Positions 36,082 to 54,374 of a stretch of 64,000 nt of DNA are shown piece by piece. The notes below the pieces were generated by a model. That model was not told the origin of the DNA and did no database searches. It saw nothing but the letters and a program-made list of their open reading frames with translations. The position numbers and the translations under genes are program-made. The stretch is taken from contig CAWJZV010000030.1 of assembly GCA_963847445.1 (NCBI GenBank), positions 480,001-544,000 on the forward strand, in the 5' to 3' direction. Numbering within the stretch: the first letter of the stretch is position 1; each line of letters opens with the position of its first letter. The stretch is from an uncultured delta proteobacterium (GTDB lineage: Bacteria > Desulfobacterota > Binatia > UBA9968).

Positions 36082-36293
36082 CTATGCCCTTCGTCTTCGC
36101 GCAATCAACTTCGCTCCGTCCACAACTGGGAGTCGCCGGCAGTGTTTTGAAACTCCCGAACCGCTCCGCCGTCTTCGTCCGTCGAGCGGTCGTGGAATCA
36201 TTATGCAGCCAGCCATGTCCGATCAAATGTGGCGCGAGTCGTTGCCACCTCAAACCGGACGAACCTGTAGACTCCCCGACCCCTTTGCGATGG

Positions 36294-37391
36294 CTAATTG
36301 AGCCTTGCCCCACCATGCAACGCCTGTGCGGCGGCGTATTCCTTGGAAAGGTCGAATCCTATGTCCGTATCCAGGGCGATGGACTTGAACGCTACGTACA
36401 TGAGGCACACTAAGTGGAGCCCGCTGAAATTTCCCGCAAGGCTCTTCAGTTGATATTTTGGCGTGGAATCGTTGGTATCCAGACCGCGTTGTCCCGTTGC
36501 CGCGATTTCGAAACCGATCTGTTGCACCTCCGCGCGCGGCATCTTGGCAAATGTTTCCAATGCGCCAAGGCAATACATCACGGCGTCCGGACGTGGCATT
36601 CCTGGTGTATGCCTTTTGAAGCTCTGTTCGGCCATCTTTCGCAAGGCATCCTGCGCGGCGTCGGCGATTTTGCTGTATTCATCAAGATCGATAACTTTTT
36701 TGTACGCGTCATGAGCGTCTTTGGTGCGTCCTAAAGCGACCAGGACCTCGGCCAGGCCGAACACCGCCGCCTGGTCTCTTGGTGCGAGCATTACCGCCTG
36801 CCGAAGATGTTCTTCCGCCTCCTCTGACCGGCCAGCCTTGAAGAGACAAGCGCCAAGATTCCGCTGTGCCCAGGGATTTTCTGGATCTCTTCGCACCGCC
36901 TCATTGAGAACGGCAATCGCTTCCGTATTGTTCCCCTGCCTTTGCAGCGCAACTCCGAGAGCAATCCTCGCGTTGGTGAAATCGGCAACCAAATTGACGG
37001 CTGTACGCAGATGCTCCTGGGCTTCGGCCAATTGTCCCATGTCGCTGAGCGCCATGCCGAGATTGTACATGATGTTTACGTCTGTCGGTTTATCGCTCAA
37101 GAACAGTCTCAATAGTGTGACGGCTCCCGCGTACTCGCCGCGCTTGAGTTTTTCGACGACTTGCGCCAGAGCATCGGGCGACTGGCGATCAGGTGTCCAA
37201 CTTATCTCGATAGTCTGGTCGCTAACTTCGACCGAATGCCAGCCGCCGATGGCCTGAAAATCCGCGGTCAGATAAGCTTTTACTGAGTCTCGGAAAAGTG
37301 CAGTACCGCGCTGGCGCGCCTCGCTGGGCAAAAGTGAAAGATCGAAGTCCTCCGTTGCCAAGGTAAATTTCACCACATTCGGTTCGGTCAT
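36294..37391 (-). CDS. Tetratricopeptide repeat protein with unannotated N- and C-terminal domains
   Basis: 4-5 TPR motifs (YNLGMAL, IALGVAL, RNLGACL, FGLAEVL). Confidence 0.85.
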   Translation of the reverse strand: MTEPNVVKFTLATEDFDLSLLPSEARQRGTALFRDSVKAYLTADFQAIGGWHSVEVSDQTIEISWTPDRQSPDALAQVVEKLKRGEYAGAVTLLRLFLSDKPTDVNIMYNLGMALSDMGQLAEAQEHLRTAVNLVADFTNARIALGVALQRQGNNTEAIAVLNEAVRRDPENPWAQRNLGACLFKAGRSEEAEEHLRQAVMLAPRDQAAVFGLAEVLVALGRTKDAHDAYKKVIDLDEYSKIADAAQDALRKMAEQSFKRHTPGMPRPDAVMYCLGALETFAKMPRAEVQQIGFEIAATGQRGLDTNDSTPKYQLKSLAGNFSGLHLVCLMYVAFKSIALDTDIGFDLSKEYAAAQALHGGARLN

Positions 37392-37446
37392 AATGAAAGT
37401 TTTATAGCCTGGGTGCTGGAATATAGGAAGAGACCCGTCTGGGTCT

Positions 37447-38248
37447 TCAGGAGTGGCTTGGCGGGTTATAGGGACGCCACTGATACCAACCCGTAAGACC
37501 TAACTGTTTGCTCCAGAGATCGATGAGCTGGCAATCCGCGGAAGCATCATCGGGCACTTCGTCTAGAGCCCGCAGGAGTTCCTCGCCAGCTTTGGCAAAA
37601 CCAGCCGCTTTATAGGGGAGCGAAAGCCTTGGATCGGCAAGATGGCTGGCCCAGAACTCGGCGAACGCAGCGTTCATCGTCAGGTTGGCGTTAAGGACCT
37701 TTGTGGCAGCAATCTTCTTGATCTCCGGACTAAGTACCTGCAAGTTTTCTTGCAATTGCTGCATTGCCGCCTTCTGTTGAAGTTCAGAAAGCTCCGGATA
37801 CTCGCGCATGATCCACGAGTCGACGCGAAAGCCAATCGGAATGGATCTCAGCTGGGTCATGAGTCCGTCGAAAAGTTGATCGCGCAGCGTTGCAATGCTT
37901 TCTGGAGGCAATTTCAATTTTGTTCCCGGCCCGTCAGGCGCGGTAAGAAGCTGGTAAACGATCTGTCTACCCTCAACCGTGCCCGCGAAATCGAACCGGT
38001 CAGCAGCGGCAATGCTAAACAGCCGCAGGATAAAGCCGCACTGAAAGCAGATTAAATAATCCGGCTCGCCAACCGCCGAGGGGTTGAATGAAATCAAGTG
38101 AATTTTGTTCGCGCCGCGCGCGATGCGTGCAGCCGCCAAAGTTTTGAGCGAAGCTGTCCTCGCTGACGACGACCGGACAGCCGCTCGCGTCTTCAACTAG
38201 TTTAATGACGGTGCGGGTTACTTCTCGAAGTGTCATGGAATGTACCAT
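37447..38248 (-). CDS. Hypothetical protein (one indel near the start), partner of the TPR gene
   Basis: ORFs 38015..38248 and 37447..38196 join at VVVSEDS/SLKTLAA; co-oriented, 55 bp upstream of the TPR gene. Confidence 0.7.
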
Positions 38249-38498
38249 ACCATAATCTAAACAAGCGCAAACTGCATCTTGTATGCCTGCGTCTGGATTA
38301 GAAGGTTGGACAATATGTTTAGCCGAAAGCGAATCGACAAAGCAGGCTGGTCGATCAAATCTACGCGTTGGCCGGGGTTTTCAAAAAGTGGAGCTGAGCC
38401 TCGAAAATACGCATTTCTCAGCACTGGGAAAGACGTCAAAAGTTAAGACCTCAATCTCACCCTTCACTGACCCTCAATCTTCCTTTCACTCTGTCTTG

Positions 38499-39423
38499 TC
38501 ATCGCCGGAACACTATTTCGGAATGCCACTCCAGGAACTCGCGGTTTGGTTTGGATTCAGCGTTATTCGGTAACCAGATCGTGTTCCCGCTCATACGAAA
38601 ATATTCTTCACCGTTGTTGAAGTCGTCTTTAAGACGATGACTGGCTCGGAACTTGTAGTCGGGCGTGACCGTTACATAGCCTTTGTCGAATAGCCTGTGG
38701 ATATCGGAGCGAAAAAGGACACCGTTGTCTACACGATGCTTGCCTTCTTCGGTCACGGGCCTAATGTGTGCTGCGTCGAGTGCGGAAGGGCCTTCTCCCC
38801 GGTAATAGCGCAACGACGTTGATAGGCATCGGTCACGAGGATGCGGAAAGCGCCCTGACCGAGCCGTTGTCTGATAGAGATGGGGTCACTCCACATGACA
38901 GTACCGTCGCCGACTTGAAACTGCACGACTGGTTGAGATGCCAACCCCATTTGGATCGCATTCCATAGGTCTTTTCCCGTTCCGGAACCAATATCGTACG
39001 TTTTGCCTTGGACAATGTTCAAAGAAAAGTCTTTCGGAATTGGAATCCACTCGTTACGTAAAAGGAAGAAAGGCTGCTGTAGGAGGATACAACCGATCTC
39101 AAAATCTTCCCTAGCGTCTGCCTTGGAACCACGATACTTCAAAATCTTTGATCGCATTTCGCCGAACGTGCTGGTTCCATTTTTTTCGCCGAACGCCTCC
39201 CACGCCAAACTCACAGGCAGGATTGAAGAGTGAGTAAAGAGACCCGCCGCCCACGATGAAGTTCTGCGGGCTGTGCAATTTGAAAGAAAAAAGCTCCCCA
39301 GGCCCGAGACTTTGGAAGCGTTGTTTCCCGCCCGGCTGCCAGAAATTCACCTCGTCAACATTGACGAGTTTACTTAGAGAAGCGATGCCAGTCGTTGTCT
39401 GTTACGCCGACATAGATTTTCAT
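38499..39423 (-). CDS. HNH endonuclease (putative restriction endonuclease), several indels
   Basis: MKIYVGVTDNDW...EVNFWQPGG N-terminal domain; RLGQGAFR..V..AY..RCAITG, LDAAHIRP, NG.L.RSDIHRLFD.G, FLEWH. Confidence 0.85.
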
Positions 39424-39562
39424 GACATAAATGCTTGTTAGCTAGACACCGCCGTAGCCTAGGCTCGCGCGCCAATTAGGACCGGTTTAGTTGTATGGTA
39501 ATTTTAATTTATAGAACCCTCGCACCGAGATGTGTTGGACATTCGGCGATACCGCTTGCCAC

Positions 39563-42019
39563 TCAAATCGTTTCTGGTAGGAGAGCAACCAACTCTGCAA
39601 TGACTTGTACGGTGCCGCGGGTGTTTGGCTCAAATACTAGTTGCCGAAAACTGGAGTCATCGCTATCTGGCACTAAAATTATTCTCTCGTGTCGCCACTC
39701 TTCCTGCTCTGAGAAAACCTTCTCGCTCTTATAGATCTTTACGGTGTAAGACCCGCCCAGTTCCGGATCGTGAATATCCCGATGCTGGGCCACAACAATC
39801 TTACCCTGCCGCGTCCCTGTTGGATTAGTCCTGAGTAAACACCAGGAGCCGTTGGGAATTCTGCGATTCATCGATTCGCCAATGACTTGAGCGACAAACA
39901 ATCCCGGCCTTGGTCTGAAGAGATCGGGAAGTTCTACCCATTCGACTTCATCGGGATCAATCGATTGCGTTTCACTGAACGTGCCAGCGGCGAACTTGAG
40001 ATCGACGAGTGGCACCGCATTGTCGTAACGTTTCACTTCAGACAAGGGAAGCTTTCGAAACGGAAAATTACGCGAGTTAGAAACAGAAGACTGCTTAGGT
40101 TGCGGCAGGGGTTCCTTCACGACTCGAGGTTGCAACCCTAAACCTTCCGTTCGACTGCGAACGAAGCGCTCCGTGTCCTTATCCATGAAGTGCACATAGC
40201 AGCCCTTGAGGCCGCGCGACAACAGCACACGGTACGTGTTCTTAACTAGGTCGGTGAACTGATCGCCGCCCTTCTTTACGACAGTGTCGTGTGACTTGTC
40301 TTTCTGGCCGCGCCAAGCTCCCCGATCCAGATTGTACACGAGGTCTGGGTCCCCAGATTACGCCGACGTAATCGAATTCAAACCCTTGTGCCGTATATAC
40401 ACACCCCACTTGATCGATACCGCGTGGGTCGTAGGCCCAAAGAACTTCCGGAGGAATGCCGGGTTTGAGACGTTTAGCCTCCGAACGAGCATTCCAAGGG
40501 CGTCTTAAAGTCGCCTATTACAACGTCATTGATGAGCGAACCGTCAGGCGTCGTCTCCGTAGACCAGGGCCAACAGAAACCGGCAACCAATCTTGCGCTG
40601 TGGCCAGTTTCACTGAACGAGCGTATTCGACGGTCGAGTTCTTCGGGAGAGCTGACGATTTGGAACTCAAATGTCTCGTTTCGCTGATCCCATATTGGTG
40701 TGGCCGTCTCTTCAACGCCAAGACTATTGTCTATCCAATTTACGAAACCACTGGAGCCCGCACAACGAAACTGTGCTTCCAGCTTGTGCTCTTCGAGCGA
40801 ACAGCCGTTGCGCCCGGCATAGTCCCGAATTAAATCGCTGGCACCCACTTCTCCAGGTCGCACGATCTGACGGTCATCAATGAAGAGACACCACCGTCTT
40901 TGAAGCGTCGATTAGCTCCTGTATTTGTGTCTTCGAAGACTTCTTCTCTTTCCGTGTAAAGCGATGATTGCTTGATGACCGGATGCGGTGCGACTCATCG
41001 CAAATGAGCGCATCTACTGACGACGGATCTGCGCTACCGTATTGGTTGAAATAGCGAAATTGCTGACCCGCTCTACGACCTACGATTTTCTGTAAGGTCT
41101 TAGTGAATGCGCGCGAACCCGTTACGTACTGAGCATTAAACCCCTTGCCTGAAAGTTCGCTCATCAAATTGATAGCAAGCACGGACTTGCCTGTACCTGG
41201 GCCGCCTTTAATTAAGAGAAACCGCCTTCCTTCTCTGTGCTATACCTTTCTTCACACTCGCCAGGATTCGGCTGTACACGACCTGTTGCTCGTATCGAAT
41301 AGCACGAAGCGAGGTTCACACTTGATGACACCAGAGACGTGGTCGAGCAAACGCTTGCTGGGCCTGAATCGACTTTGCTCCACCCGAGCCAAGACCGGCA
41401 TTCCTTGTCCATTCTCTAGTCTCATCTCCAAATAGGTGACGAGATCGCCCACTGAATCAGCATCGAACAATGGTGTGATGCCGCGGATGTCATCGAACTT
41501 CGGAGACTTGATGGGATCATCAGCAGTAGACACGTAGTTGTGAAGGTACGCACACGCAGCGAGTTGCACTGGCTCTTTCTCGTAGAAAGCCTCGTGCATG
41601 TCCAGAAGATATCGACGATATTGGTTGGCTTGCATCGACGGATGTAGAACGTCGCGCTCAGCGCCCCCTAGGTAAGTGCGCACCAAGCCCTCGCCTTCGG
41701 TAGCTTCGGATTTATCCCATTGCTTCAGTTCCACAATGACGGCAGAGTCCCGACTATAGCTGTCGTGTCCAGTAATCATGCAATCGAGACGTTTGGAAGT
41801 CAGAGGCAGTTGATACTCAAGAATTACGCCGTGGTCATTTAGATCGGCCTCTGTAAACACTTGAGCCAGGGCACGGAGCGATTCCTGCCATGATCGAATT
41901 TCAGACGGAGGTGGATCGTAACGAAACTGACTGCGGAACGCCACCTTCAGCTTGTCAGCAATCTGGTTGTGCGTTGAGTCCCGAACGAAGTCGGGGGACA
42001 TTCCTGCGTAGAGACGCAT
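39563..42019 (-). CDS. DUF2075 (Schlafen group 3 helicase-like) protein with N-terminal PD-(D/E)XK-like domain and C-terminal S24 peptidase; several indels
   Basis: EY...KRLD...IVELKQW; Walker A GGPGTGKS; ICDESHR; LEAQFRCAGS; ARLVAGFCWPW; YTAQGFEFDY; KNTYRVLLSRG; S24 motifs AAG, GESM, TVK. Confidence 0.85.
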
Positions 42020-42020
42020 G

Positions 42021-42372
42021 TCAGAGTTCCTGTGTACTTCTTGTTCGATCCCCGGGCTTTCTCTACGGGGTACTTCTTTGCGTTGTGAACAATTTTGTCT
42101 CGTGCCGCCGCAATCAGATCGACATCGAGCTTGTCAGCCAATCGCACTAGGTAAATTAAAACGTCGGCGATTTCATCTTTGACTTTGGCCTTCTGCTCGT
42201 CGGAAAGGCCCTTGCTTTGCTCTTCCGTGAGCCACTGAAACTGCTCTAGCAACTCGCCAGCTTCCACTGTCAACGCGGATGCGAGGTTTTTCGGCGAGTG
42301 AAACTGATCCCAGTCTCTATCTTCGGCGAATTTGCGGATCGCCAAACGCAGCGCGTCTATTTCATTGTCCAT
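42021..42372 (-). CDS. MazG-like nucleotide pyrophosphohydrolase (DCTPP1/RS21-C6 type)
   Basis: F...RDWDQFHSPKNLA.AL.VEAGELLE.FQW, DEIADV..YL, N.KKYP; probable true end KKYTEL* after a 1-nt correction. Confidence 0.9.
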
Positions 42373-42550
42373 TTTGGTTCACGCTAAGAAATATTGGGTT
42401 GATATTCAGCTTCATTCGGGGTAGAGGCACTGATTCGGCGCGCTGCATTCAAAACATTAGACTGCTAACTGCGCTGGGACAGCTCAGCTTAAATTTTCGT
42501 CACTCTACTGGAATCGCGGGGGAGGTGGCAAGGGTTTCTTAAAACAACCC

Positions 42551-42872
42551 GGTTCCAATAGTTCCAGTCGTTCCAAACGTTCCATCGCTGCGCTTCGTTC
42601 AAAACATTTAAAGATCGATCCGTTCAAATCGTTCAAGCCGTTCAACCGCTTCGCTCCGTTCAAAACGTTATCCGATTAAGATTAAGCTTCGTTCAAAGGT
42701 TCAAAGGTTCAAGGCATTTAAAGATCGGGCCGTTCCAATAGTTCCAATCGTTCCAAACGTTCCATCGCTTTGCTCCGTTCAAGTCGTTAACCGACAAGGA
42801 TTGTTCAAGGTTCAAGGCATTTAAAGATCGGGCGGTTCCAATAGTTCCAGTCGTTCCAGAGGTTCCAGCGGT
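42551..42872 (+). repeat. GTTC(A/C)A mosaic repeat block 1
   Basis: GTTC every 7-9 nt; units GGTTCAAGGCATTTAAAGATCGG (42706, 42809), GTTCCAATAGTTCCAGTCGTTCCA and CCGTTCAACCGCTTCGCTCCGTTCAA...ATTAAGATTAAGCTTCGTTCAA. Confidence 0.9.
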
Positions 42873-43008
42873 TATCGTTTAAAAAGCCTGCCCCTGAGAT
42901 TGCCGAAGGGTTTAACCCATTACTTCGACGCGGTTCCCTGTGCTCGGGGCTGCGTTCCAGGCAAAACGTTAAATCCGAGCTAGCTCAGTGGCTCAGGGAG
43001 GATTTTAG

Positions 43009-43264
43009 TTATCGATAGACTTCTCGGCGGTGCCGAACCCGGAAAATTTTAACCTGTTTGCGCGCGTCATCGATTTCATAAACGACCCGATAGTCGCCGA
43101 TCCGTATTCGCCAGTCGTTCTTGGATCCGGCAAGTTTGTGACATCCAGTTGGCCGTGGATTATCGGCAAGCGCCTTAATGCGAGGCAGGATACGATCAAA
43201 GAGAGCGGTGGGTAGAGATTTGAGGTTCGCGCTCGGCGGTCCGTTCTATAAGAACGTCATACAC
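43009..43264 (-). CDS. relE: RelE/ParE family toxin (one indel near 43226)
   Basis: Manual translation: YDVLIERTAERDLKSL...LADNPRPTGCHKLAGSKNDWRIRIGDYRVVYEIDD...RVRHRREVYR*. Confidence 0.85.
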
Positions 43265-43463
43265 CAGCGGGGTCCTTTAAAAAGTCGTCGAGCTTGCGAA
43301 ACTTCAGCGGTTTTTTCCGCATGGCTTTGAGCGTTTTGAGGTCTTGGGCATCCTCGGCTTGTTCGAGCAGCTTGCGATACTCCTCGATGCCGAGGATGAC
43401 GGCGGTCGGCTTTCCTCCGCGCATCACGATCTCAGGATTTTTTCGCGTTCGTCGTGCTTTCAT
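43257..43463 (-). CDS. Phd/YefM-like antitoxin
   Basis: RGGKPTAVILGIEEYRKLLE..ED..D; overlaps the toxin start. Confidence 0.8.
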   Translation of the reverse strand: MKARRTRKNPEIVMRGGKPTAVILGIEEYRKLLEQAEDAQDLKTLKAMRKKPLKFRKLDDFLKDPAGV

Positions 43464-43562
43464 TGGAACTCACCTCGCTGGCCACCAAAGATTATCATTG
43501 GCCCCTTATCTCTGCAATTGACTCTACGACTAGAAAAATTTGCTCGGCACACCGCGCGACCC

Positions 43563-43752
43563 CGGTTCCAGATGTTCCAGGTCAGGTTTAAAGATCGGAC
43601 CGTTCAAGGGTTCCAGTCGTTCAAACGTTCAAGGTCAGAATGGGCTTCGTTCAAAACATGAACTGACTAGGACGCGTTCTAGGTTCAAGGTTCAAGGGTT
43701 AAACGATCAGGCCCGTTCCAATAGTTCCAGCCGTTCCAAAGGTTCCAGCGGT
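43563..43752 (+). repeat. GTTC(A/C)A mosaic repeat block 2
   Basis: TTTAAAGATCGGACCGTTCAA and CCGTTCCAATAGTTCCAGCCGTTCCAAAGGTTCCAGCGG. Confidence 0.9.
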
Positions 43753-43795
43753 TAATTTCCGCTGATGGTTAATTATTAATAGGTATTAAATCAAC

Positions 43796-44077
43796 TTAGG
43801 CGACGCGAGAGACTTTAATTTTGTCAGCGTATTTTTCTGCCTGGGCGAGGTCATAGGCCGCCTGGAGTCGGAGCCACGTTTCAGCGCCGCCACCGAAAGC
43901 TTTGTCGAGCCGGATCGCCATCTCTGGGGAGATCGCCGCTTTACCGTTGACCAGGTTGTTTAGCGCCTGCCTTGTGACGCCAAGGATTTTCGCTCCCTGG
44001 GTCACCGAAATACCCAGCGCCTCAAGGCAATCGCAGCGAACCGACAATCCAGGGTGCGGCGGATTTTTCATGGACAT
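43796..44077 (-). CDS. higA: HigA family antitoxin
   Basis: [37 protein letters not shown]...E.WL.LQ..YDL. Confidence 0.95.
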
Positions 44078-44089
44078 GTATGTGCTCTC

Positions 44090-44270
44090 CTAATGATAGT
44101 CGACGAGATCTACGTCGTACGCATTGCCGTTACCGAAACGAAAGATGATGCGCCAATTGCCCGACACCGAGACCGCCCAGAAGCCCTTAAGACCGCCCTT
44201 GAGCGGATGCAGTCCAAAGGCGGGCAACGCCATGTGCTTGATATCCGTAGCCTCATCCAGCCGAGCCAGG
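44090..44270 (-). pseudogene. higB: HigB toxin lacking its N-terminal third
   Basis: Manual translation LARLDEATDIKHMALPAFGLHPLKGGLKGFWAVSVSGNWRIIFRF...DVDLVDYH*; an in-frame TGA and repeat block 3 lie immediately upstream. Confidence 0.85.
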
Positions 44271-44442
44271 AAGGTTCAAGGCATTTAAAGATCGGCCCGT
44301 TCAAGGGTTCAACGTTCAAAAGTTCAAGGTCAGATTCGGAAGAATACCGTTCCAACCGTTCCACAGGTTCTAGCGATGACGCTGGTTCGTTCAATATTTC
44401 AAGGTCAGACTCGGGTGCGGACTCCTTCTTTTCCGGAATTCC
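44271..44442 (+). repeat. GTTC(A/C)A mosaic repeat block 3
   Basis: Starts AAGGTTCAAGGCATTTAAAGATCGGCCCGTTCAA; ends TTCAAGGTCAGACTCG...TTTCCGGAATTCC. Confidence 0.9.
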
Positions 44443-44454
44443 TAAAACAAATGA

Positions 44455-44859
44455 TCAGTTCCAGACTGTGGGAACGATTCCGGAATCGTGAATTATTGGA
44501 TCCTTCGTCAACAGCGGGAAACCGAGCAGTTTCGCCTCTGTGACGATCAGACGATCGAAGATATCCGGAATCAGAGTGAATAGACGGCTAGCAATTACGG
44601 TTGCAGGCGTTAAGGACATTAAAGAATAGTTGCTGCTCTGCTCCATCGATTCGAGATGCGGCACAACGCGGTTCAGATCCACCCCGGAAAGCCGCCCTTT
44701 TTGAATAACCATCAACACCTCAGCTACAACCACCGCAGGAACATGAATACAGGCTTGTCCTGTTTCCGCGTCAGAAAAAACCTGCTTCGCTGCTGGCCCT
44801 AAACGCTGTGGCCAGTACAAGTGCCAGAGCAGCGAGTGCGTATCAGTGACGTAATCCAC
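44455..44859 (-). CDS. PIN domain (VapC-like) toxin
   Basis: YVTDTHSLLW, VVAE, DIFDRLI, LLTKD. Confidence 0.9.
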   Translation of the reverse strand: MDYVTDTHSLLWHLYWPQRLGPAAKQVFSDAETGQACIHVPAVVVAEVLMVIQKGRLSGVDLNRVVPHLESMEQSSNYSLMSLTPATVIASRLFTLIPDIFDRLIVTEAKLLGFPLLTKDPIIHDSGIVPTVWN

Positions 44860-44862
44860 GAC

Positions 44863-45153
44863 CTACGGCTCCTCCCGGTCTTGCACCTCTGTGATTAACT
44901 TATCTCCACTTTGGCGGCGTTCCCGGCGCAACTCTGCGAGCGCTTCCGCTATCGGGTCAACGCCTGTCATGGATGGCTCACTGTTCGGCGCAAGAACGCC
45001 GGCAAGCTTAAGGATTTTCAACTGCGCCGATTCTTCGGTGTGAAACACAACTTCAGCCGGGCCAGCCGGAAAATCATCGGGCAATGTGACCGAAACCTGG
45101 TGATTGCTGGGTATTGTGACCTTAAGCTTATGTGTATGCATTTTGTTCTCCAA
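44863..45153 (-). CDS. Putative antitoxin partner of the PIN toxin
   Basis: Small ORF directly upstream of the PIN gene; LPDDFP.GPAEV motif. Confidence 0.65.
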   Translation of the reverse strand: MENKMHTHKLKVTIPSNHQVSVTLPDDFPAGPAEVVFHTEESAQLKILKLAGVLAPNSEPSMTGVDPIAEALAELRRERRQSGDKLITEVQDREEP

Positions 45154-45301
45154 TTCCTATCCACACTGCCCTTGTCGCCGTTCCAAACAACCGCAATCCC
45201 AATATTCCCCGCGTTTGATAAAATATTGTATCCCAGTCGTCCTCGACACCCAAGCAGCATATCAAACCATAAATTTAGCGGCAAATTAGCCATCAACTAT
45301 C

Positions 45302-45765
45302 AGATCGGAACCGTTCCAACAGTTCCAGTCGTTCCACAGGTTCCAGCGGATGGCTTGGATGGTTCAAAGGTTCAAGGCATTCAAAGATCGGCCCGTTCAA
45401 GGTTCAAGAGCCTGCCCTGAGTATGTCGAAGGGTTCAAACGTTCAAGGACGGATTTGGATTGGCTGACGGCGGGGGGAAATACTGTTCAAATGTTCGACC
45501 TTTTCAAAAACCGACACACGGAGTTCAAATAGTTCCCTTCGGCAAGTCTCATGGTTCGACGGGGCTCACCATGACCCTGAGAGTGCCGAATGGGTCAGGG
45601 CCTGAGTTTATCGAAGGCAGGCCGTTCAACCGCTTCGCTCCGTTCAAGACGTTATCCAATTAAGATTAAGCTTCGTTCAAGGTTCAAGGGTTCAACGTAC
45701 ACGGATTCGGACGGGATAAGTTCAACGGCTAAACATATGAACCGTTCCAAATACCAGCAGCGGAT
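45302..45765 (+). repeat. GTTC(A/C)A mosaic repeat block 4 with nested CCTGAG...TCGAAGG REP-like palindromes
   Basis: Units at 45311, 45369 and 45622-45680; nested CCTGCCCTGAGTATGTCGAAGGG (45411) and a compound insert at ~45535-45620. Confidence 0.9.
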
Positions 45766-45792
45766 TAGAGAGATCGAGCGGCTAGTTGAAAG

Positions 45793-46203
45793 CTACCGGG
45801 CCGGTATGATCGCAAAGCGACCGAGCCTAGCAGGCCGATAAACCTGAAAATCGCGACGGTCGAGGGTAAAGATTCGCCGCAACCGCTCGCGCTCGGCAAC
45901 GCGAACCAAGGCACCGTCCGCCAGATCCATCGGCAAATCGCGGTACTTGTGCATCAATTCTCTAATGCGCGGGACGTCGTCGATTCCTAACGGCATGATT
46001 TCTATCGCGCCGCTCGCGATCATTTCCCAAAGCGCATCCTGGGCGCGCCAGGAAAAATTCAAAAGGTGGAGGGCTTCGGTGACTACGGGCCACACTGTGC
46101 CGAGCGGCTCGTCGAGCGCGGCAAAGGCGTCTCGACAACGCTCATGTTGATTGTCGTCTTGGTGTATGAGGGCGATCAGCGGCCCTGCGTCGACAAGGAT
46201 CAT
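45793..46203 (-). CDS. PIN domain (VapC-like) toxin
   Basis: ILVDAGPLIAL, VVTEA, YRDLPMDLAD, IFTLDRRDF. Confidence 0.92.
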   Translation of the reverse strand: MILVDAGPLIALIHQDDNQHERCRDAFAALDEPLGTVWPVVTEALHLLNFSWRAQDALWEMIASGAIEIMPLGIDDVPRIRELMHKYRDLPMDLADGALVRVAERERLRRIFTLDRRDFQVYRPARLGRFAIIPAR

Positions 46204-46466
46204 CGACGCTTGCGGGCTCGCTCGACTAGCATTTCTCGAACCTTCTTGCTCGCATCTACGGAAAGATCCCGAGGTCCGCCTTTGACACAGCCAATCAGAT
46301 GAGCCACCAGATCATAAGGGCGCGTTTTCACGGCGCCCGTCTCTTCCTGTTTGGCGAGCACACCGATCGCGTCCCGGATGACTTCGGATTTGGTCTGTCG
46401 TCTCCTGCGAGCCAACCGTCCGATCAAGGACTCGGTCTTTTGATCTAAGCGAACGCTCAAAGGCAT
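46200..46466 (-). CDS. Ribbon-helix-helix (CopG) antitoxin
   Basis: LSVRLD...L..LARRR..TKSEVIRDAI; 4-bp overlap with the PIN gene. Confidence 0.85.
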   Translation of the reverse strand: MPLSVRLDQKTESLIGRLARRRRQTKSEVIRDAIGVLAKQEETGAVKTRPYDLVAHLIGCVKGGPRDLSVDASKKVREMLVERARKRR

Positions 46467-46482
46467 AAACGCGATTCCCCCA

Positions 46483-46504
46483 TGTAATACAGTAGTGTAC
46501 TACA
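46483..46504. promoter_or_regulatory. Tandem palindromic operator for RHH autoregulation
   Basis: TGTAATACA-N4-TGTACTACA (two TGTA-N-TACA palindromes) just upstream of the RHH start. Confidence 0.6.
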
Positions 46505-46527
46505 AACCAGCTCAAGACCTCAATACA

Positions 46528-46795
46528 GGTTCCGATAACCGTTCAAGCTTCAAGGGTTCAAAGGTTCAAGGCATTTAAAGATCGGCCCGTTCAAATCGCT
46601 CCAATCGTTCAACCGCTTCGCTACGTTCAAAACATTTTAAGATCGATCCGTTCAAATCGTTCAAGCCGTTCAACCGCTGCCCTTCGATTGCCCTCAGGGC
46701 CAGTGAGGATCTCGAACGGCGCTCCGTTCAAGACGTTATCCAATTAAGATTAAGCTTCGTTCAAGGTTCAAGGGTTCAAAAGTTCAAGGTCCGAT
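46528..46795 (+). repeat. GTTC(A/C)A mosaic repeat block 5
   Basis: Unit GGTTCAAGGCATTTAAAGATCGG at 46563; ~46610-46765 closely matches ~42585-42697 apart from a 40-bp insert. Confidence 0.9.
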
Positions 46796-46811
46796 ACGGA
46801 ATGGATGCGGG

Positions 46812-47360
46812 TTATCGTTTGCCATAGCGCGCGGCGCGTTCCTCGACCAGAAAGCCGATCTTGCGCTTCTTGGGCTCCGGCGGTGTCATCAGTTGGCGGA
46901 TGGCGTCGAAGACGACCTTGAATTGCGCGTCATATTTTCGCTCAAGCATTTCGAGCTTGTTGGCCAGATCCTTGTGCGTTGCCAATATCTCCCGCAACCG
47001 AACGAACGCGCGCATGATTTCAATGTTCACGCTGACGGCTCGCTTGCTTCGTAGAACACTTGAAAGCATGGCCACGCCTTGTTCGGTAAATGCGTGGGGA
47101 AGGTACTTCCGATGTCGTCCCCGGCCGCTTTCTAAGGTAACAATTTGTGACCTTAAAGCCGTGAACTCTTCAGCAGTGAGTTGAAACATGAAGTCGGCGG
47201 GGAACCGGTCGTGATTTCGTTTGACGGCCTGGTTTAAAACTTTCGTCGACACTTGGTAGAGTTCTGCCAGATCGGCGTCCAGCATAACTTTATGGCCCCG
47301 GATAAGAAAGATCGACTTCTCGATCCGTTGCGGCGGAATGATTTGATCTTGTGGTGACAT
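46812..47360 (-). CDS. ORF6N domain DNA-binding protein
   Basis: [61 protein letters not shown]. Confidence 0.92.
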
Positions 47361-47545
47361 AACAATGGCGAACCTTATGCGATCTGCCGGCGATAGGGCA
47401 AGAGCTTGCCGAACTCTCACCTGGCTGGCCCTTACAGCAACGCTAGAATTTCCGAGCTTAAGCTTCCGCGATCAATATGTAACCGTGCAACTGTCACCGG
47501 CACAATCATCATTCAACCCAAATTTTCGTCACTCTATTGCCGGGA

Positions 47546-47666
47546 AGGTGCAAGGGTTCAAAAGTTCAACGTCGGTTTCCAAAGGTGTCCAGCCGTTCGA
47601 CAAGGCCCGTTCACGGGTTCAAGGTCAGATTCGCACGGAGACTTCCACGTTTCCGGAATTCCGGAC
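47546..47666 (+). repeat. GTTC(A/C)A mosaic repeat block 6 (degenerate, array end)
   Basis: GGGTTCAAAAGTTCAA; ends TTCAAGGTCAGATTCG...TTTCCGGAATTCC like block 3. Confidence 0.8.
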
Positions 47667-47747
47667 GTGTGGTAATGAGCCGCGCCAGGCGCGGCCACTA
47701 GCCGCCGCTCTTTTTCCCGCTCCGCGGCTATGCTAAGAAAACTCCCC

Positions 47748-48311
47748 ATGGCCATTCTTAAAGTCACTCGCTTGGGGCATCCGGTGCTGCGCAAAGTCAC
47801 CGAGAATATTTCCGTCAAAGAACTCAAGACCGCGGCGATGCAGCGCTTCATCGACGACATGGTCGAGACCATGAAAGAGTACGACGGCGTCGGGCTGGCG
47901 GCGGATCAGGTGTTTACCTCGAAACAGCTCGCGGTGCTCGAAGTCGCCGACAACCCGCGCTACCCCGATAAAGGCAAAGTGCCGCTCACTGTCCTGGTGA
48001 ATCCGAAAATCACGCCGCTGTCGGATGACATGGAAACCGACTGGGAAGGCTGCCTCAGTGTCCCAGACCTGCGCGGCCAGGTGCCGCGTTACCAACGTAT
48101 CCACGTCACCGCGCTCGATCGCGACGGCAATAAACTCGACTTCGTCGCCAAGGGTTTCCACGCTCGGGTGATCCAACATGAATACGATCATTTGAACGGC
48201 AAGGTTTATCTCGACCGCATGGGCGATTTTTCCACCCTGACGTTCCTACAGGAATTCTCGCGATACTGGTTGAACAAGTACGGAGCGAGCATCTGCCACG
48301 GACCACTCTAG
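47748..48311 (+). CDS. def: Peptide deformylase
   Basis: GVGLAA.Q, EGCLS, QHEYDHLNG. Confidence 0.97.
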   Translation: MAILKVTRLGHPVLRKVTENISVKELKTAAMQRFIDDMVETMKEYDGVGLAADQVFTSKQLAVLEVADNPRYPDKGKVPLTVLVNPKITPLSDDMETDWEGCLSVPDLRGQVPRYQRIHVTALDRDGNKLDFVAKGFHARVIQHEYDHLNGKVYLDRMGDFSTLTFLQEFSRYWLNKYGASICHGPL

Positions 48312-48329
48312 AACCGCCCTGCCGCAGAA

Positions 48330-48670
48330 TGAACTACTCCGCAGCAAGCTGCGGGGTATCAAAGCAAACCCACTTCGAGCGCGTCGACAAAGCCTTGAAG
48401 TCGCTGTTCTCCCTCGGCAAGGTGTCAATCACCTATTGGCAATAGTTCAGTGTGCTGTCGGCCTGGCAAGACTGGGCAAGATAGATTTCTCGCTCCGCTC
48501 GAAATGACAAATTGTGACTGTCGGTCATCGCGAACGCCAGACTGTGTGAAAACTCCGTTCATGCTTCGAGTACCTCAGTCGTAGGGTGGGTGGAGGTGCC
48601 ACGCGCCGATACCCACCGTTCGGAATGATGGGTATCGCTAACGCTCCACCCATCCTACGCCAGAGTCACA
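48330..48670. repeat. Stack of several REP/MITE-like palindromes
   Basis: ACTACTCCGCAGCAAGCTGCGGGGTATC; AGATTTCTCGCTCCGCTCGAAATGACA; CCGTTCATGCTTCGA; GTAGGGTGGGTGGAG...CTCCACCCATCCTAC. Confidence 0.7.
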
Positions 48671-48712: not shown

Positions 48713-50744
48713 TTATTCGCGAATTCCCGCTAAATCCAAGAGAAATACATAGCTGAATGCGGTCTCCTGATGGCGCCGGAAACGTCCCGAGGCGCCGCCG
48801 TGGCCGGCCTCCATGTTGGTCTTGAGCAGAACCGGATTGTTATCGCTCTTGAGCTCACGCAGTTTCGCCACCCACTTGGCCGGCTCCCAGTACTGCACTT
48901 GCGAGTCGTGCAAACCGCCGGTGATCAGCATGGCGGGATAGTTTTTTTTCGCGACGTTGTCATAGGGCGAGTAGGACAACATGTAGTCGTAAAACTCTTT
49001 CTTGTGGGGATCGCCCCACTCGTCATATTCGCCGGCGGTCAATGGAATCGACGCGTCGAGCATGGTGGTGACGACGTCGACGAACGGCACCTCGGCGACG
49101 ACACCTTTGAATAAATCCGGGCGTAAGTTGCTCACCGCGCCGATCAATAACCCGCCGGCGCTGCGTCCCATGGCGAAGAGTTTCTCCGAGTTGGTGAACC
49201 GTTCGCTAAGCAAAAACTCGGCGCAAGCGACGAAATCGCTGAAGGTGTTTTGCTTCTTCAGCAGCTTGCCATCGTCGTACCATTGGCGGCCGAGCTCCTG
49301 GCCGCCGCGGATATGGGCGATGGCGAAAACAAAGCCGCGATCGACCAAACTCAAGCGCGGCGACGCGAAGGCGGCATCGATGCTCACGCCGTAGGATCCG
49401 TAGCCGTACAGCAGCGTTGGATTCTGCCCGTCTTTCTTCAGCCCTTTGCGATAGAGCAGCGACAGCGGAATCTCGGTGCCGTCGGCGGCGCGGGCATGGA
49501 GCCGCTCGGTGACATAGTCATCGGCGTTGAAACCGCCGAGCACTTCCTCCTGCTTTAATAATCTGCGCTGGCGCGTGTCCATGTCGTAGTCGTAAATCGA
49601 CTGCGGCGTCTTCATCGAGGTGTAATCGAAACGGACGATCTTGGTGTCGAATTCCATATTGGCGCCGAGGTGCGCCCGGTAGGCCGGCTCGGCAAATTCC
49701 AAATAATGCGCGCCGCTGCCCGACCACGGCACGACGCGGATCTGCGTCAGGCCGCGCGCCCGCTCTTCCAAAACCAGGTAGTCTTTGAACAGATCGAAAT
49801 CGCCCAGGTAAACATCGTCGCGGTGGGCAATGATTTCGCGCCAGTGCTCGCGTCCCGGCTGCGCCACCGGCGTCGCCATCAAGCGAAAGTTCTTCGCCTG
49901 ATCGTTGGTGCGGATGAGGAAGCGGTCGTGCGATATGATCGATCTGATACTCATGGCCGCGCGCTCGCGGCAAAAATATTTTGAATTCGCCAAGAGGCTC
50001 ATCGGCATCGAGATAACGGTACTCGTGGGTGATCGTTTGCGCCGACACCAGCAGCAAGTACCGCTTCGACTTGGTCTTGAAAATGTACACGCTGAAAGTC
50101 TCGTCGTCCTCCTGGTAGACCAGCTGGTCGGCCGCCGGATCGGTGCCGACGATGTGGCGCCAGATCTGATGTTGGCGCAGCGTGGTTTCGTCCTGTTTGC
50201 CGTAGAACAGCGTCCGGTTGTCGTTGCCCCAGGCAAGATTTTCGGTGACGTTGGCGATCACGTCCGGCAGCACAGCGCCGCCGGTCAGGCTCTTGATATA
50301 GGTCGTGTGAATCCGCCGTCCCTGGGTGTCGATGGCGTAAGCGAGCAGATCCTGCCCCGAACTCACCGCCGACCCGCCGATGGAGAAAAACTCATGGCCT
50401 TCGGCCAAGGCGTTGCCGTCGAGCATCACCTGCTCGGGCGCATCGAGTGCAGCCAACTTGCGGCAGTAGATCGGATACTCTTTACCCGCCTCGAAGCGGG
50501 TGTAGTAGAAATAGTCGTCGCGCTTGTACGGCACCGACAAATCGGTCTGCTTGATCCGGCCTTTGATTTCTTCGAAAAGCTTTTTCTCGAACTCCTGAGT
50601 ATGCGCCATCGCCTTGGCGGCAAAGGCGTTCTCATCGTTCAAGTAGCGGATGACTTCGGGATTGTCCCGTTCGCGCAGCCAGTAGTAGTCGTCGACGCGC
50701 ACGTGGCCATGGGTTTCGAGCCGGGTGGGGATCTTCTTGACCAT
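48713..50744 (-). CDS. ptrB: Oligopeptidase B (S9A), one indel
   Basis: HGHVRVDDYYWLR, YGYGSYG, GRSAGG nucleophile motif, HDSQVQYWEPAKWVAKLR, AGHGG. Confidence 0.92.
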
Positions 50745-50841
50745 GGATCTGATGCCTCCGTCGAACCTTCGACTGAGGAAAGAGAATCTTAGGGAATTTC
50801 CCACGGTAAGCGCCAGCCGTCCGGGAATGGTCTGTTATTTC

Positions 50842-51083: not shown

Positions 51084-52152
51084 ATGGCAATCATCGACGC
51101 CGATGCCCATGTCATCGAAACCGAACAGACCTGGGACTTCATGTTGGAAGAAGAGCGCCGCTTCACGCCGGAAGTCTTGGTCTCGAAAAAGAACGGCATC
51201 CACTTCTGGCGCGTCGACGACCGGGTCATCGCCAACTCCAATCTCGGGTCTGAACGTCCCGGAAGATGCCCGCGACATGACCGATGTCTCCGCCCGCCTG
51301 GCGCATATGGACGCATTGAAGATCGACATCCAGGTGCTCTATCCGACCCTGTTCCTGCGGCCGGTGACGGCGCGCGCCGAGGTCGAGCTGGCGCTCTATC
51401 GCGGCTACAACCGCTGGCTCGCGCATATCTGGCAGCTCGGCAACAATCGCCTGCGCTGGATCGTCCTGCCGCCGCTGCGCTCCATGGACAAAGCCATCGA
51501 GGAAATCAACTTCGCCAAAGCCCACGGCGCCTGCGGCGTCTTCATGCGCGGCCATGAGGGCGAATGGCTGCTCTCCGATCCCGCGCTGTTTCCGATTTAT
51601 CGAGAAGCCGAACGGCTCGACCTGCCGATCTGCGTCCACGCCGGCACCGGCAGTTTCAACTACTACGATCAGTACGGCCAGGATGTTTTCTCGCGCTTCA
51701 AGCTGCCGTCGGTGGGCGCGTTTAATAATTTGATCTATCAGGGCGTGCCGGCGAGGTTTCCCAAGCTGCGCTGGTCGTTTGTCGAAACCACCTCGCAATG
51801 GCTGCCCTACGCGGTCAACGATCTGGTCATCCGCACCCAGGCCGAACGCGAGTTCCAGCGCAAGTATGCCGGCCATGTGCTCACCCAGGCGCGCCCCAAG
51901 GAGCGCACCATCGAAGCCGCCACCGTCCTGCGCGACAACCGCGTCTACGTCGCCTGCCAAACCACCGACGATCTCGCCTACGTGGTCGACTGCGTCGGCG
52001 AAGACCATATCACCGTCGGCACCGACTACGGCCACGCCGACTATTCCAACGACATCGAAGCGATCCAGACCTTGGCCGAGGGCGGCAAGATCGGCGCGTC
52101 GTTCGCGCAAAAAATCTTGGACGACAATCCCAGAAAACTCTACGGGCTTTAG
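51084..52152 (+). CDS. Amidohydrolase family 2 protein, one indel
   Basis: IIDADAHVIE, QVLYPT, LPICVH, VGTDYGH.D, ILDDNPRKLYGL. Confidence 0.9.
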
Positions 52153-52168
52153 TTGAGGGAAAGTTTAC

Positions 52169-52242
52169 TCACCGCGGAGACACAGAGAACACAGAGAATA
52201 GCTCTTTAAACTCTTTGCGATCTCTGCGCCTGTGCGGTGAAT
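52169..52242. repeat. CACCGCGGAGACACAGAG inverted-repeat element between convergent genes
   Basis: TCACCGCGGAGACACAGAGAACACAGAG...CTCTTTGCGATCTCTGCGCCTGTGCGGTGA. Confidence 0.75.
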
Positions 52243-52257
52243 TATCTTTCGACCGAT

Positions 52258-53241
52258 TCACAGCCGCAATTCTCGCACAGCGTTGCCGCCCAGTATCAAA
52301 GCGCGCTCGGCGTCATCGATCTCGAGTTGCATGATTTTACTCACCGCATCGAAGTCGCCCATCGCCATCGGATAGTCGGTGCCGATCACCACCCGGTCGG
52401 CGCCGACGACTCGCACAAGATAGTCCAACGCCGCTACCGAGTGAACGATGGTGTCGAAGTACATTTGTTGTCAAATATTCGCGACGGCTTCCGTGGCAAC
52501 TGCTTCTGCAAATCCGCGCGCAGACCGTAGGAATGATCCAAGCCGCCAGATGTTGAACGCCAACAGGCCGCCGCCATGGGACAGACACAAGCGCAGGTTG
52601 GGATACTTCTCGAACATGCCTTTGAGAATCATGCGCTCGACCATCAGCGTGGTGCGAAAGGTAAACTGCAGAACGTTGCCAAGAATCGGCGACAGCGGAT
52701 CGTCGGCGTCGAGCCCGCCTTCTAATGGGTGGACGAACAGCAGCAGCTCCAACTCCTGCGCGGCTTGAAAGAACGGCTCGAAGCTCGGATCGTCGAGCGG
52801 CTTGTCCCCCACCGCGTTGCCGATCTCCAGCCCCTTGAGCCCCATGCTCTTGGCTTCCTTGGCGATGGCGATGGACTCGGCAACGCTCTGCAGCGGCACA
52901 CTGCCGAAGCCAATGAATCGATCCGGATGCTTCTTGACGACATCTTGAATCGCTTCGTTCTGCCGGCGCGAGAAATGCGCGGCGACAGCGGCATCTTCCC
53001 AGTAAAATAACAGAATCGGCGACGGCGAGATCGCCTGCATGTCGATCTTCATTTCGTCAAGTGCTTTGATCCGCGCCAGCGGATCGTACGCTCCAGCGCC
53101 CAGACCAGGGCGAGAACCGATCTGCGAGGTCACCGACAGCTTGCCGTCATTCAACACCAGCTTCGGCGCGCGGTTTTCGAACTTGCCGGGATTCTGCAGT
53201 GCCTCGACGGGAAAGAAATGCGAATGCAGGTCGATGTTCAT
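52258..53241 (-). CDS. Amidohydrolase family 2 (ACMSD-like decarboxylase), indels near the C-terminus
   Basis: IDLHSH, LFVHP, LSHGGG, YFDTIV, IGTDYP, ILGGNA. Confidence 0.9.
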
Positions 53242-53417
53242 GGTGCGTCCGGTCTCCTCATGACGAACTGTCTATACACCATCCGGTCCGTACTGTACCA
53301 GAGGTTATCGTCGTCAAGCTCGGCACAAAGTGATACGTGAGAGCGGTCCAGACATCTGTTCCGTGTCGATTGGATTCGAGCTGAATGTCAGGTATCTTGA
53401 GTTCACGAGGATGGTTT

Positions 53418-54316: not shown

Positions 54317-54374
54317 GGTGATTTTAACCCTTCCTCTCACAACCTTTGCGCCTTGTCAGCTGCTATGGCCATGA

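Follow-up and report, generated by a model that had tools for sequence, protein, structure and literature searches.

Units of alternating orientation make up the bacterial interspersed mosaic elements (BIMEs), which are composed of repetitive extragenic palindromic (REP) sequences; the genes of REP-associated tyrosine transposases (RAYTs) are directly flanked by REPs of their own, and inverted REPs around such a gene are the hallmark of REP–RAYT systems. The attC sites of integrons are imperfect palindromes of 57–141 nt, which fold single-stranded and carry RYYYAAC and GTTRRRY cores. Next to an integron array lies the gene of an IntI-type tyrosine recombinase, although integrase-less clusters of attC sites do without it, and the cassettes are co-oriented, mostly promoterless and expressed from a common promoter, Pc. 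As outlined in a general review (PMC3184786), REPs are found preferentially where two genes converge, clusters of BIMEs are associated with recombination, Escherichia coli has a ccd toxin–antitoxin locus in decay next to REPs and, after Parkhill 2000, arrays of Neisseria intergenic mosaic elements (NIMEs) surround the Neisseria pilin cassettes, the repeats being thought to promote cassette recombination. RAYTs are described as mobilizing REPINs (REP doublets forming hairpins), as vertically inherited and (PMC5581495) as typically single-copy; PMC13108822 and 10.1101/2024.07.02.601686 present sedentary chromosomal integrons as holding small co-oriented cassettes rich in toxin–antitoxin and defence genes. 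Here, we analysed a window of 64 kb (positions 480 001–544 000 of contig CAWJZV010000030.1, assembly GCA_963847445.1) from an uncultured delta proteobacterium, and within it an array, at 42551–47666, of small toxin–antitoxin and ORF6N gene cassettes separated by blocks of a GTTC(A/C)A repeat. Its closest known kinds are BIMEs and Neisseria NIMEs, in both of which a repeat found genome-wide is clustered into mosaics at plastic loci, alternating in Neisseria with gene cassettes. We hold it somewhat probable that the locus is a BIME/NIME-like mosaic repeat array in a toxin–antitoxin and defence junkyard, in which cassettes are exchanged through the portable homology that the blocks provide. Throughout, coordinates without a contig label are positions in the window, G000 is the genome that contains it (7.19 Mb, 48 contigs), other G-numbers are related genomes and C-numbers are contigs of the genome named.

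Read directly, the array consists of five minus-strand cassettes interleaved with six blocks in which GTTC(A/C)A hexamers are repeated on the plus strand, the cassettes standing in the order Phd-RelE, HigBA, X-PIN, RHH-PIN and ORF6N. A first-pass annotation, made from the sequence and its open reading frames (ORFs), had placed the block starts at 42551, 43563, 44271, 45302, 46528 and 47546; all six are confirmed, and the polarity it reported is borne out as well, every hexamer lying on the plus strand and the genes of 5/5 cassettes on the minus strand. The pattern GTTCMANNNGTTCMA is matched 27 times in the window, where shuffled sequence would give 0.02 matches; 22 of the 27 lie within 42552–46673, all on the plus strand, the remaining five belonging to one hairpin element at 57109–57244. 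The blocks, of 120–460 bp, are mosaics of repeat units with a GC content of 46–51%, against 57% for the genome. They are head-to-tail strings of single arms of a repeat found throughout the family.

Taking as a cluster any group of at least four hexamers, we counted 272 clusters in G000, 106 with two opposed arms (78 ‘+−’, 28 ‘−+’) and 158 one-directional, of which 113 have just four hexamers; the commonest ordered form is four plus hexamers, a loop and four minus hexamers. Same-strand hexamers are spaced by 9, 8 and 7 bp in 640, 295 and 163 cases, respectively, against about five expected per spacing, and the nonamer consensus is GTTCMA-R-N-C. According to a home-made and crude codon-usage gene caller covering 77% of the genome, 213 of the 272 clusters are intergenic (versus 52 by random placement), with 47 in convergent and 14 in divergent intergenic positions for a baseline of 1133 versus 1118. 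Dispersed copies form strong hairpins (10/10 tested, z of −2.4 to −10.7), whereas all six array blocks fold worse than their mononucleotide shuffles (z of +0.6 to +4.6). The copy at 57109–57244, with four plus hexamers, a loop and six minus hexamers, is retained at the orthologous place in G003 and G004. At a larger scale, the 9-bp-periodic pattern was detected in 80 of the 87 sampled genomes of the family (f1), including all 29 of the genus, in 0/28 genomes of the sister family f3 and in 2/5 of family f2 (a single match each), the reversed pattern used as control giving no match in any genome except one (1 match); the hexamer itself is conserved across about 25 genera. Unpublished genomes entered these and later counts: G005 those of the repeat, of the Rrf2–def distance and of the RAYT type, G088, G091 and G102 those of the repeat and of the RAYT type, and all four the scan for the F element described below; none of our claims depends on these genomes alone.

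The repeat is REP-like, but its arm has an unusual nonamer period and its conservation is unusually wide. The blocks are not a signal dedicated to cassettes: the hexamer repeat is family-wide and intergenic, and most of its copies are unconnected to any cassette. Ranked by hexamer count among the 272 clusters, focal blocks come 1st, 3rd, 4th and joint 5th (12 hexamers, tied with two others). Among the literature matches listed, nothing relevant was found on the hexamer as an intergenic repeat, and the review PMC3184786 was the sole relevant item on toxin–antitoxin genes with mosaic repeats. Outside the window, at C30:577600–596100 of G000, nine hairpin copies lie mostly between successive plus-strand genes of about 330 aa, and look like the punctuation of a tandem gene family.

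These features bring the repeat close to the BIMEs of Enterobacteriaceae and Pseudomonas, which are likewise mosaics of a few unit types built from an intergenic, hairpin-forming repeat (the REP unit) in hundreds of copies, and which share, as far as the cited sections of the review go, the bias to gene 3′ ends and convergent pairs and the link to recombination, variable loci and a decaying toxin–antitoxin locus. Of the properties that define REPs and BIMEs, we found the high copy number outside genes and the bias to 3′ ends and convergent pairs, together with a stem-loop in the dispersed copies (10/10) that is absent from the six blocks. Unlike in BIMEs, however, the arm is not a single GC-rich palindrome but a tandem of four nonamers, the motif is common to a whole family of many genera, and the units of the array are all direct, do not fold and delimit gene cassettes. 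The NIMEs, in which RS units bounded by dRS3, a short conserved inverted repeat targeted by a recombinase or phage, surround the silent pilS cassettes, resemble the array in that mosaic repeat blocks alternate with short cassettes without any integrase in the array. They differ in that dRS3-like short inverted repeats are missing here, that the cargo consists of unrelated selfish and defence genes instead of variants of one antigen gene, and that the repeat also occurs as hundreds of dispersed hairpins. Indeed, no dRS3-like inverted repeat recurs at the unit boundaries and no terminal inverted repeats were found around the blocks, the 6.2 kb holding just seven weak inverted pairs, none of them at both edges of a block. 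Miniature inverted-repeat transposable elements were rejected on the same absence of terminal inverted repeats and on that of a duplication at the junctions of the island.

The array lies in an interval that varies among relatives. Its conserved left flank is the gene of an Rrf2-family regulator, which heads the suf cluster (34852–35352, minus strand; Pfam Rrf2, 6.5e-33), 76–93% identical to its counterparts, and its conserved right flank is def, for peptide deformylase (47730–48311, plus strand; gene name from the first-pass annotation), a region matched in all relatives listed. The Rrf2 and def matches are 49–140 bp apart in seven relatives (G003, G021, G002, G010, G013, G015 and G005) and approximately 0.8 kb apart in G004, G019 and G009. 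Since the two genes are adjacent in relatives, the stretch 35391–47700 is a 12.3-kb insertion, absent from the nearest relatives; homology to G003 stops at about 35390 and resumes at about 47676–47705, and no target duplication was seen when the junctions were read directly. The comparison of the suf–def interval proposed with the first-pass annotation thereby shows it to be strain-variable, Rrf2 and def being adjacent in those seven relatives. The idea of the same hot spot in distant relatives was rejected, as the Rrf2–def intervals of G018 (4 kb) and G012 (12 kb) hold ordinary-looking genes and no cassette arrays.

Cassettes of the same kinds recur in other arrays. Besides the focal one, G000 has three one-armed arrays: at C24:1500–2700, with a DUF2283 pair and an ORF6N fragment beside BrnTA; at C28:65100–66400, with a Gp49/HTH pair; and at C2:47400–54500, with a RAYT-like gene, TctC, a PIN fragment, an ATP-dependent ligase and an ORF6N fragment. 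In G004, an array on contig C6 adjoining TsaE has 11 blocks, 11/11 of them on the plus strand, and, in this order, the cassettes ORF6N, TctC, ORF6N fragment, Phd-RelE, ligase, zeta-like, hydrolase and RHH-PIN, 7/8 of which lie on the minus strand by our reading of the data. The co-orientation of blocks and cassettes announced for the focal array therefore holds in G004 too. An array of G003, with RHH-PIN next to Gp49/HTH, is also beside TsaE, where G000 has none. Altogether, arrays of G003, G004, G014 and G022 have cassettes in common with G000 (RHH-PIN, Phd-RelE, ORF6N, ligase and TctC), reordered and at other loci, with a homology of 77–96% between genomes, in line with the shuffling proposed with the first-pass annotation. 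About half of all cassettes seen are toxin–antitoxin genes, as the announced enrichment would have it, but PIN genes are not generally near blocks: 3/24 have a cluster within 1 kb, where random placement gives a mean of 2.0, and a general association of the repeat with toxin–antitoxin genes was rejected accordingly.

Where exchanges can be delimited, their ends are enriched in blocks. Between TctC and the ligase, G000 C2 and G004 C6 carry different cassettes, and both breakpoints fall inside blocks. Counting the homology ends of segments of at least 300 bp, with a tolerance of ±10 bp for block membership, 13/29 are in blocks, which make up 13% of the compared DNA. Breakpoints had been expected in blocks; these 13 and both TctC–ligase breakpoints agree with this, but the other 16 do not. 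Ends outside blocks fall at the higA stop codon, inside higB, ORF6N and a RAYT-like gene, and at a fusion, shared by G004 and G014, in which the PIN cassette is joined without any block to a neighbouring cassette whose gene is truncated. This fusion, the cut in higB at the edge of block 3 and the ORF6N fragments at C24:2700–2900 and C2:54510–54641 of G000 point to imprecise joins, and blocks 1 and 5 contain tandem duplications. A locus in a different genus (L108; G116:C11:245025–247040) has the exact 24-base motif of the F element followed by two ‘+’ blocks, between which lies a stretch 75% identical to the G000 C2 cassette that holds the PIN fragment; these similarities suggest that array segments may have passed between genera.

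The blocks themselves are patchworks. Of the modules named in the first-pass annotation, A (a 23-mer) is present at all five positions given, 42706, 42809, 44273, 45369 (one mismatch) and 46563, for an expectation of 0; B, C and the end module were recovered as repeat families D1–D5 and D16, but the copy of C at 46666 is only partly as described, being split by about 40 bp of another small repeat. Block 1 (42551–42916; z +4.6) has 23 hexamers, the largest cluster in the genome, and an internal tandem duplication of 103 bp covering modules A and B. Block 2 (43563–43795; z +0.6) is followed by block 3 (44271–44454; z +1.7), which ends in the TTTCCGGAATTCC module, and by block 4 (45302–45752; z +0.6), which also carries a second small GC-rich repeat, CCCTGAG..CGAAGGG (family D17). 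Block 5 (46528–46811; z +2.0) contains a 61-bp tandem duplication and shares exact tracts of 60 bp with block 4 and of 40 bp with block 1. Block 6 (47546–47666; z +0.9) combines the end module with a 14-bp palindrome, TCCGGAATTCCGGA (D16, I6), and abuts the conserved upstream region of def. All six lie on the plus strand, and the repeat-rich intervals around them have exact tracts of 17–60 bp in common. A terminator function was rejected, no terminator-like site being found in any block (11 in the region versus 9.1 expected), and a search of 41500–48500 against Rfam at E ≤ 1 returned 0 matches. The second GC-rich small repeat, GCCTGCCCTGAG..TCGAAGGGC, which is partly palindromic and has seven copies in the genome at no more than two mismatches, is embedded in blocks 1, 4 and 5 (42885–42920, 45408–45440, 45568–45622 and 46677–46715).

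All cassette genes lie on the minus strand, and each cassette brings 60–150 bp of upstream DNA of its own, conserved with it in relatives. Three type II toxin–antitoxin pairs are recognized by Pfam (Phd with a RelE-like partner, HTH with HigB, and RHH with PIN), the fourth being PIN with an unclassified partner. The Phd-RelE cassette (43011–43463) comprises Phd (43257–43463; Pfam PhdYeFM) and a frameshifted relE (43011–43262) in which one base pair is inserted when compared with the copy of G004, intact at 84 aa; the relE fragment has no Pfam match, its identity coming from the translation read by eye and from the intact G004 ORF, and the interval 42917–43639 is 89.8% identical to G004:C6. In the HigBA cassette (43796–44270), HigA, an HTH antitoxin (43796–44077; Pfam HTH_3), is next to a HigB fragment (44093–44269; Pfam, HigB-like profile positions 35–91 of 91) that has lost its first 34 codons or so, the break coinciding exactly with the start of block 3. 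G023 and G007 have the whole gene, and homology to their higBA spans from the higA stop codon to 44271, the start of block 3. With relE frameshifted and higB truncated, half of the four toxin genes are damaged. The gene content given by the first-pass annotation therefore stands as to families (by Pfam) and strand, but both the frameshift of relE and the 5′ truncation of higB had escaped it. The third cassette (44455–45153) pairs a PIN toxin (44455–44859; Pfam PIN, 2.5e-6) with an upstream ORF of 96 aa, presumed to be the antitoxin, for which no match was found in Pfam, NCBIfam or PADLOC.

The VapBC-like RHH-PIN cassette (45753–46523; PIN at 45793–46203 and RHH at 46200–46466, both by Pfam) is 93.8, 92.9 and 89.8% identical to its copies in G004, G014 and G003, respectively. 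Homology starts at 45753–45754 in these three genomes and ends at 46523–46528, the block edge, in G004 and G014, while it continues into block 5, up to 46670, in G003. The last cassette is an ORF6N-domain gene (46812–47420; Pfam ORF6N, 3.1e-35; PADLOC PDC-S05, 1.4e-59), a candidate single-gene phage-defence protein judging from its profile matches. In a search with this gene, 580 of 600 matched stretches encode relatives, from many phyla, and 80 loci were kept at 61–74% identity; a role of the ORF6N protein as the factor of the arrays was rejected, a GTTCMA cluster being present at just 2/80 kept loci and the relatives being spread across many phyla.

To the left of the array, the insertion contains a TPR gene, two genes without family, a Schlafen-like helicase gene in four pieces and a MazG-like gene. 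The helicase gene (39563–42019, minus strand; Schlafen group 3 / DUF2075-like, with an S24 peptidase-like tail) is split into four ORFs, three consecutive ones matching PF09848 at profile positions 17–120, 128–249 and 314–354 of 354; it also has a weak PADLOC match (PDC-S41, 3.2e-5) and is likely to be a dead defence gene. The MazG-like gene (41947–42372, minus strand; PF12643, 1.5e-17) is the first gene downstream of the left copy of what we call the F element, a unit of about 55 bp (42484–42540, minus strand) with a sigma-70-like TTGCCA-N18-TAGAGT that reads into it; the consensus scan matches this copy at 42531–42502. A second and more diverged copy (47513–47560, minus strand; repeat family D18) is upstream of ORF6N. 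In an alignment of 20 copies, both hexamers (TTGCCA or TTGTCA, and TAGAGT) are conserved and the spacer is variable. The F element may be a portable promoter of one class of cassettes. It was found in 11/90 genomes of the family, namely 10/31 of the genus (G000 counted) and one genome of another genus. The genes that it faces resemble, by translation, those of defence islands (HsdM-, HsdR-, Fic-, RhuM- and DUF1016-like, ORF6N, MazG), just MazG and ORF6N being confirmed by Pfam. At 12 of 19 distinct F loci, ‘+’ blocks start 50–77 bp from F, on the side away from the gene.

Downstream of def, two overlapping minus-strand ORFs (48713–50804; 507 and 428 aa) read by translation as one gene of the prolyl-oligopeptidase or protease II type split by a frameshift; the DNA is 74–92% identical to a single stretch in most listed relatives, and the split may be an assembly indel, which bears on the trust to be placed in the frameshifts of relE and of the helicase. 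Given such other frameshifts in the window, that of relE may be an assembly error. When 52293–54864 was compared with G003 and G004, further differences in presence and absence appeared: G003, for example, had about 4.1 kb extra between its matches to positions 52293 and 52324. A segment of 240 bp is duplicated within the window, at about 53000 and at 54080–54320.

On the reading that we favour, the locus would be the youngest end of the accessory insertion, a junkyard of small, self-promoted toxin–antitoxin and defence cassettes, several of them decaying. The separators are compound, one-directional copies of a lineage-specific REP-like repeat (GTTCMA-R-N-C). The ordinary form of this repeat is an intergenic hairpin of four units and their inverted copies downstream of genes; in a handful of arrays a single arm type is present, arms of 40–60 bp being strung head to tail into mosaics of 120–460 bp. 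As different blocks share exact tracts of 17–60 bp, they would supply homology that travels with the cassettes. Homologous recombination, whether ectopic or after DNA uptake, together with unequal crossing-over and now and then an illegitimate join in or at the edge of blocks, could then swap, duplicate, delete and truncate cassettes, blocks and cassettes remaining co-oriented without a dedicated recombinase. The joins would presumably be the work of ordinary recombination and not of a special enzyme. The first-pass annotation had seen in the blocks the sites of an unrecognized system of cassette capture and shuffling; this is supported in part, in that the interval is variable, the cassettes occur in other orders and the breakpoints of one replacement lie in blocks, but the blocks are no dedicated signal and no recombinase acting on them was found.

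Several observations weigh against this reading. The 16/29 homology ends that lie outside blocks, some of them at stop codons or within genes, argue against one fixed crossover site. The shared tracts are short; blocks 2 and 6 share 13–20 bp with other focal blocks and 9–20 bp with array blocks elsewhere, a poor substrate for RecA. Three features are left unexplained by homologous recombination alone: arrays are strictly one-armed, when 106/272 clusters are two-armed; block polarity flips around the RAYT-like genes of G000 C2 and G004 C6; and the hexamer is constant across the whole family, which suggests that a conserved factor reads it. Since the genomes are kin, shared array segments and polarity are not independent, and the events are few. 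Finally, the fold controls were mononucleotide shuffles and the gene calls crude, and the order of the array is known from the assembly alone, the best public DNA runs holding 0.22–0.34 of its sampled words.

The main rival is a dedicated trans-acting enzyme that builds and shuffles the arrays by recognizing GTTCMA nonamers and cutting and joining DNA there, for which the best candidate would be a RAYT-like HUH (Y1) transposase with a DnaA-C-like tail, or else an unrecognized recombinase; the arrays would then be a functional analogue of integrons or of REPIN–RAYT mobilization. We consider this unlikely. As for recombinases, the array had been described as devoid of integrase, and no tyrosine or serine recombinase was found in the window, nor any integron integrase or serine recombinase in G000. 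Among the seven Phage_integrase matches of the genome, the nearest, 140 kb away, is XerD (354.5 bits for the XerD model, cut-off 329.6; 144.7 bits for IntI, below its cut-off of 265), and the three full tyrosine recombinases are Xer-like or part of an IS91-type unit, all of them distant. In that unit (G000 C30:196860–198655), a tyrosine-recombinase gene directly precedes an IS91-family Y2 transposase gene, the sole full copy in the genome; the target of IS91 contains GTTC, but a link was rejected, the surroundings of the unit at C30:196.8–198.7 kb being unrelated to the modules.

The RAYT-like gene of G000 (C2:49258–50181), which passes the NCBIfam model REP_Tyr_transpos (88.3 bits, cut-off 80) and has a weak DnaA C-terminal match, speaks more directly for an enzyme. 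It sits between two ‘−’ compound blocks (47456–47797) and three ‘+’ blocks (51377–54468); a paralogue of 56% identity in G004 C6 has five ‘−’ blocks to one side and the eleven ‘+’ blocks of the cassette array to the other, and in G019 C13 a third has five ‘−’ blocks on one side. This mirror polarity recalls the inverted REPs around RAYT genes and is not accounted for by replication direction, which we rejected as a cause since block strand is unrelated to GC skew and no skew switch occurs at C2:49 kb. The dispersed copies, made of two inverted arms, are also reminiscent of REPIN doublets and persist vertically in the lineage; the hexamer is conserved family-wide, f1 genomes carry from 1 to at least 19 copies of the RAYT-like type, and the cassette edges 45753 and 46523 recur at the same base in different genomes. 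However, mirror-oriented blocks 1.2–4 kb from the gene characterize just 2/16 distinct RAYT-like loci examined (one-sided at a third), whereas 12/16 have no GTTCMA cluster within 1.5–6 kb and one has a single hairpin. The two mirrored cases are not independent either, the G000 C2 and G004 C6 arrays being partly orthologous (88–97% over the ‘−’ blocks). The gene type is present in 24/28 genomes of f3 and 5/5 of f2, where the repeat is lacking, and at E ≤ 1e-10 it was not found in the repeat-rich genomes G006 (99% complete, 110 matches), G081 (395 matches) and G013. Its multiplicity and its frequent distance from the repeat set it apart from REPIN–RAYT systems, and the multi-copy protein may be a still-mobile relative. 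Besides, Y1 HUH enzymes (IS200/IS605, RAYT) act on hairpins, whereas the array blocks do not fold, and breakpoints vary, with 16/29 outside blocks. RAYT-like genes may simply be further junk: a second Y1-transposase-like ORF of G004 (L152:3594–4454; G004:C6, minus strand) holds an in-frame four-hexamer block, read as a V-Q-x repeat with the frame unbroken. Overall, the search for a recombinase or HUH gene acting in trans, advised with the first-pass annotation, revealed no recombinase that acts on the blocks, and the distribution of the RAYT-like genes does not match that of the repeat. The fuller proposal, in which the one-armed GTTCMA arrays are sites of a family-specific, integrase-free cassette system served by a trans-acting enzyme, possibly the RAYT-like HUH protein with the DnaA-C-like tail found at the polarity switch of two arrays, and in which the dispersed hairpins are the resting form of the same element, seems to us distinctly improbable.

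We likewise give little credence to the blocks being functional cis-elements, that is, arrays of sites bound by some DNA- or RNA-binding protein specific to the family, which might insulate, silence foreign genes or mark sites of RNA processing, such arrays being selected upstream of self-promoted foreign cassettes, the shuffling being incidental. The strict 7–9-bp spacing, with an invariant hexamer and a variable spacer, is what a protein-read motif would look like, and the hexamer is kept across about 25 genera, with a dispersed copy positionally conserved in three species; every cassette, those with the F element included, has a block upstream, the ‘+’ blocks begin 50–77 bp from F in 12/19 loci, and blocks are AT-richer than the genome. 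Yet no candidate protein was identified, the dispersed copies are mainly downstream of genes rather than upstream, and blocks truncate genes (higB and a RAYT-like gene of G004 among them), which is more like damage than regulation. That the array is a true integron remnant, namely an integrase-less cluster of attC sites (CALIN) in which these sites went unrecognized, is scarcely credible. The likeness to integrons, sedentary chromosomal ones and CALINs included, is real for the layout: small co-oriented cassettes, separated by repeats and rich in toxin–antitoxin and defence genes, at a locus whose content varies among relatives. ‘Integron-like’ is true of the layout alone, as neither IntI (none in the genome, the best-scoring protein being the XerD above) nor any foldable attC was found. 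All array hexamers are on one strand, the blocks fold worse than shuffled sequence, in agreement with the lack of attC structure originally noted, and GTTCAA and GTTCCA mismatch the GTTRRRY core, with C where R is needed. Moreover, the cassettes bring their own upstream regions, the breakpoints are not fixed, and the separators are mosaics of a repeat mostly dispersed singly through the genome; membership of the integrons was rejected.

An assembly artefact, in which the repeats led the assembler to chain unrelated cassettes, is very unlikely, even though the assembly is of metagenome type, with 48 contigs and 6.9% contamination, frameshifts are present in the window, two other arrays are at contig starts (C24:1–2900 and C14:59–1621) and no public run has more than 0.34 of the sampled words of the array. 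On either side of the insertion, synteny with G003 and G004 is kept, the focal contig is 630 kb long, and arrays of the same design occur inside a 1.0-Mb contig of the 10-contig G004, as well as in G003 and G014. Among the public runs holding array words, no RNA run was listed. Four of these runs (X1, X4, X5 and X6) gave only short Logan contigs, in which every joint connects block to block and loose ends accumulate at unit edges; this shows no more than that the units are multi-copy.

A nonamer-periodic hairpin with a hexamer constant over about 25 genera is unusual in itself, and points to a conserved reader. If the arrays were read by an enzyme, they would represent a new mechanism of gene capture, and a second independent invention of an integron-like platform, capturing and reordering promoter-bearing cassettes. 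If the more ordinary reading holds, the locus would be a clear example, from an uncultured lineage, of a family-specific REP-like repeat organizing a toxin–antitoxin and defence junkyard, in which an integron-style layout and cassette turnover arise without integron enzymes, and would call for caution in the annotation of integrons and defence islands.

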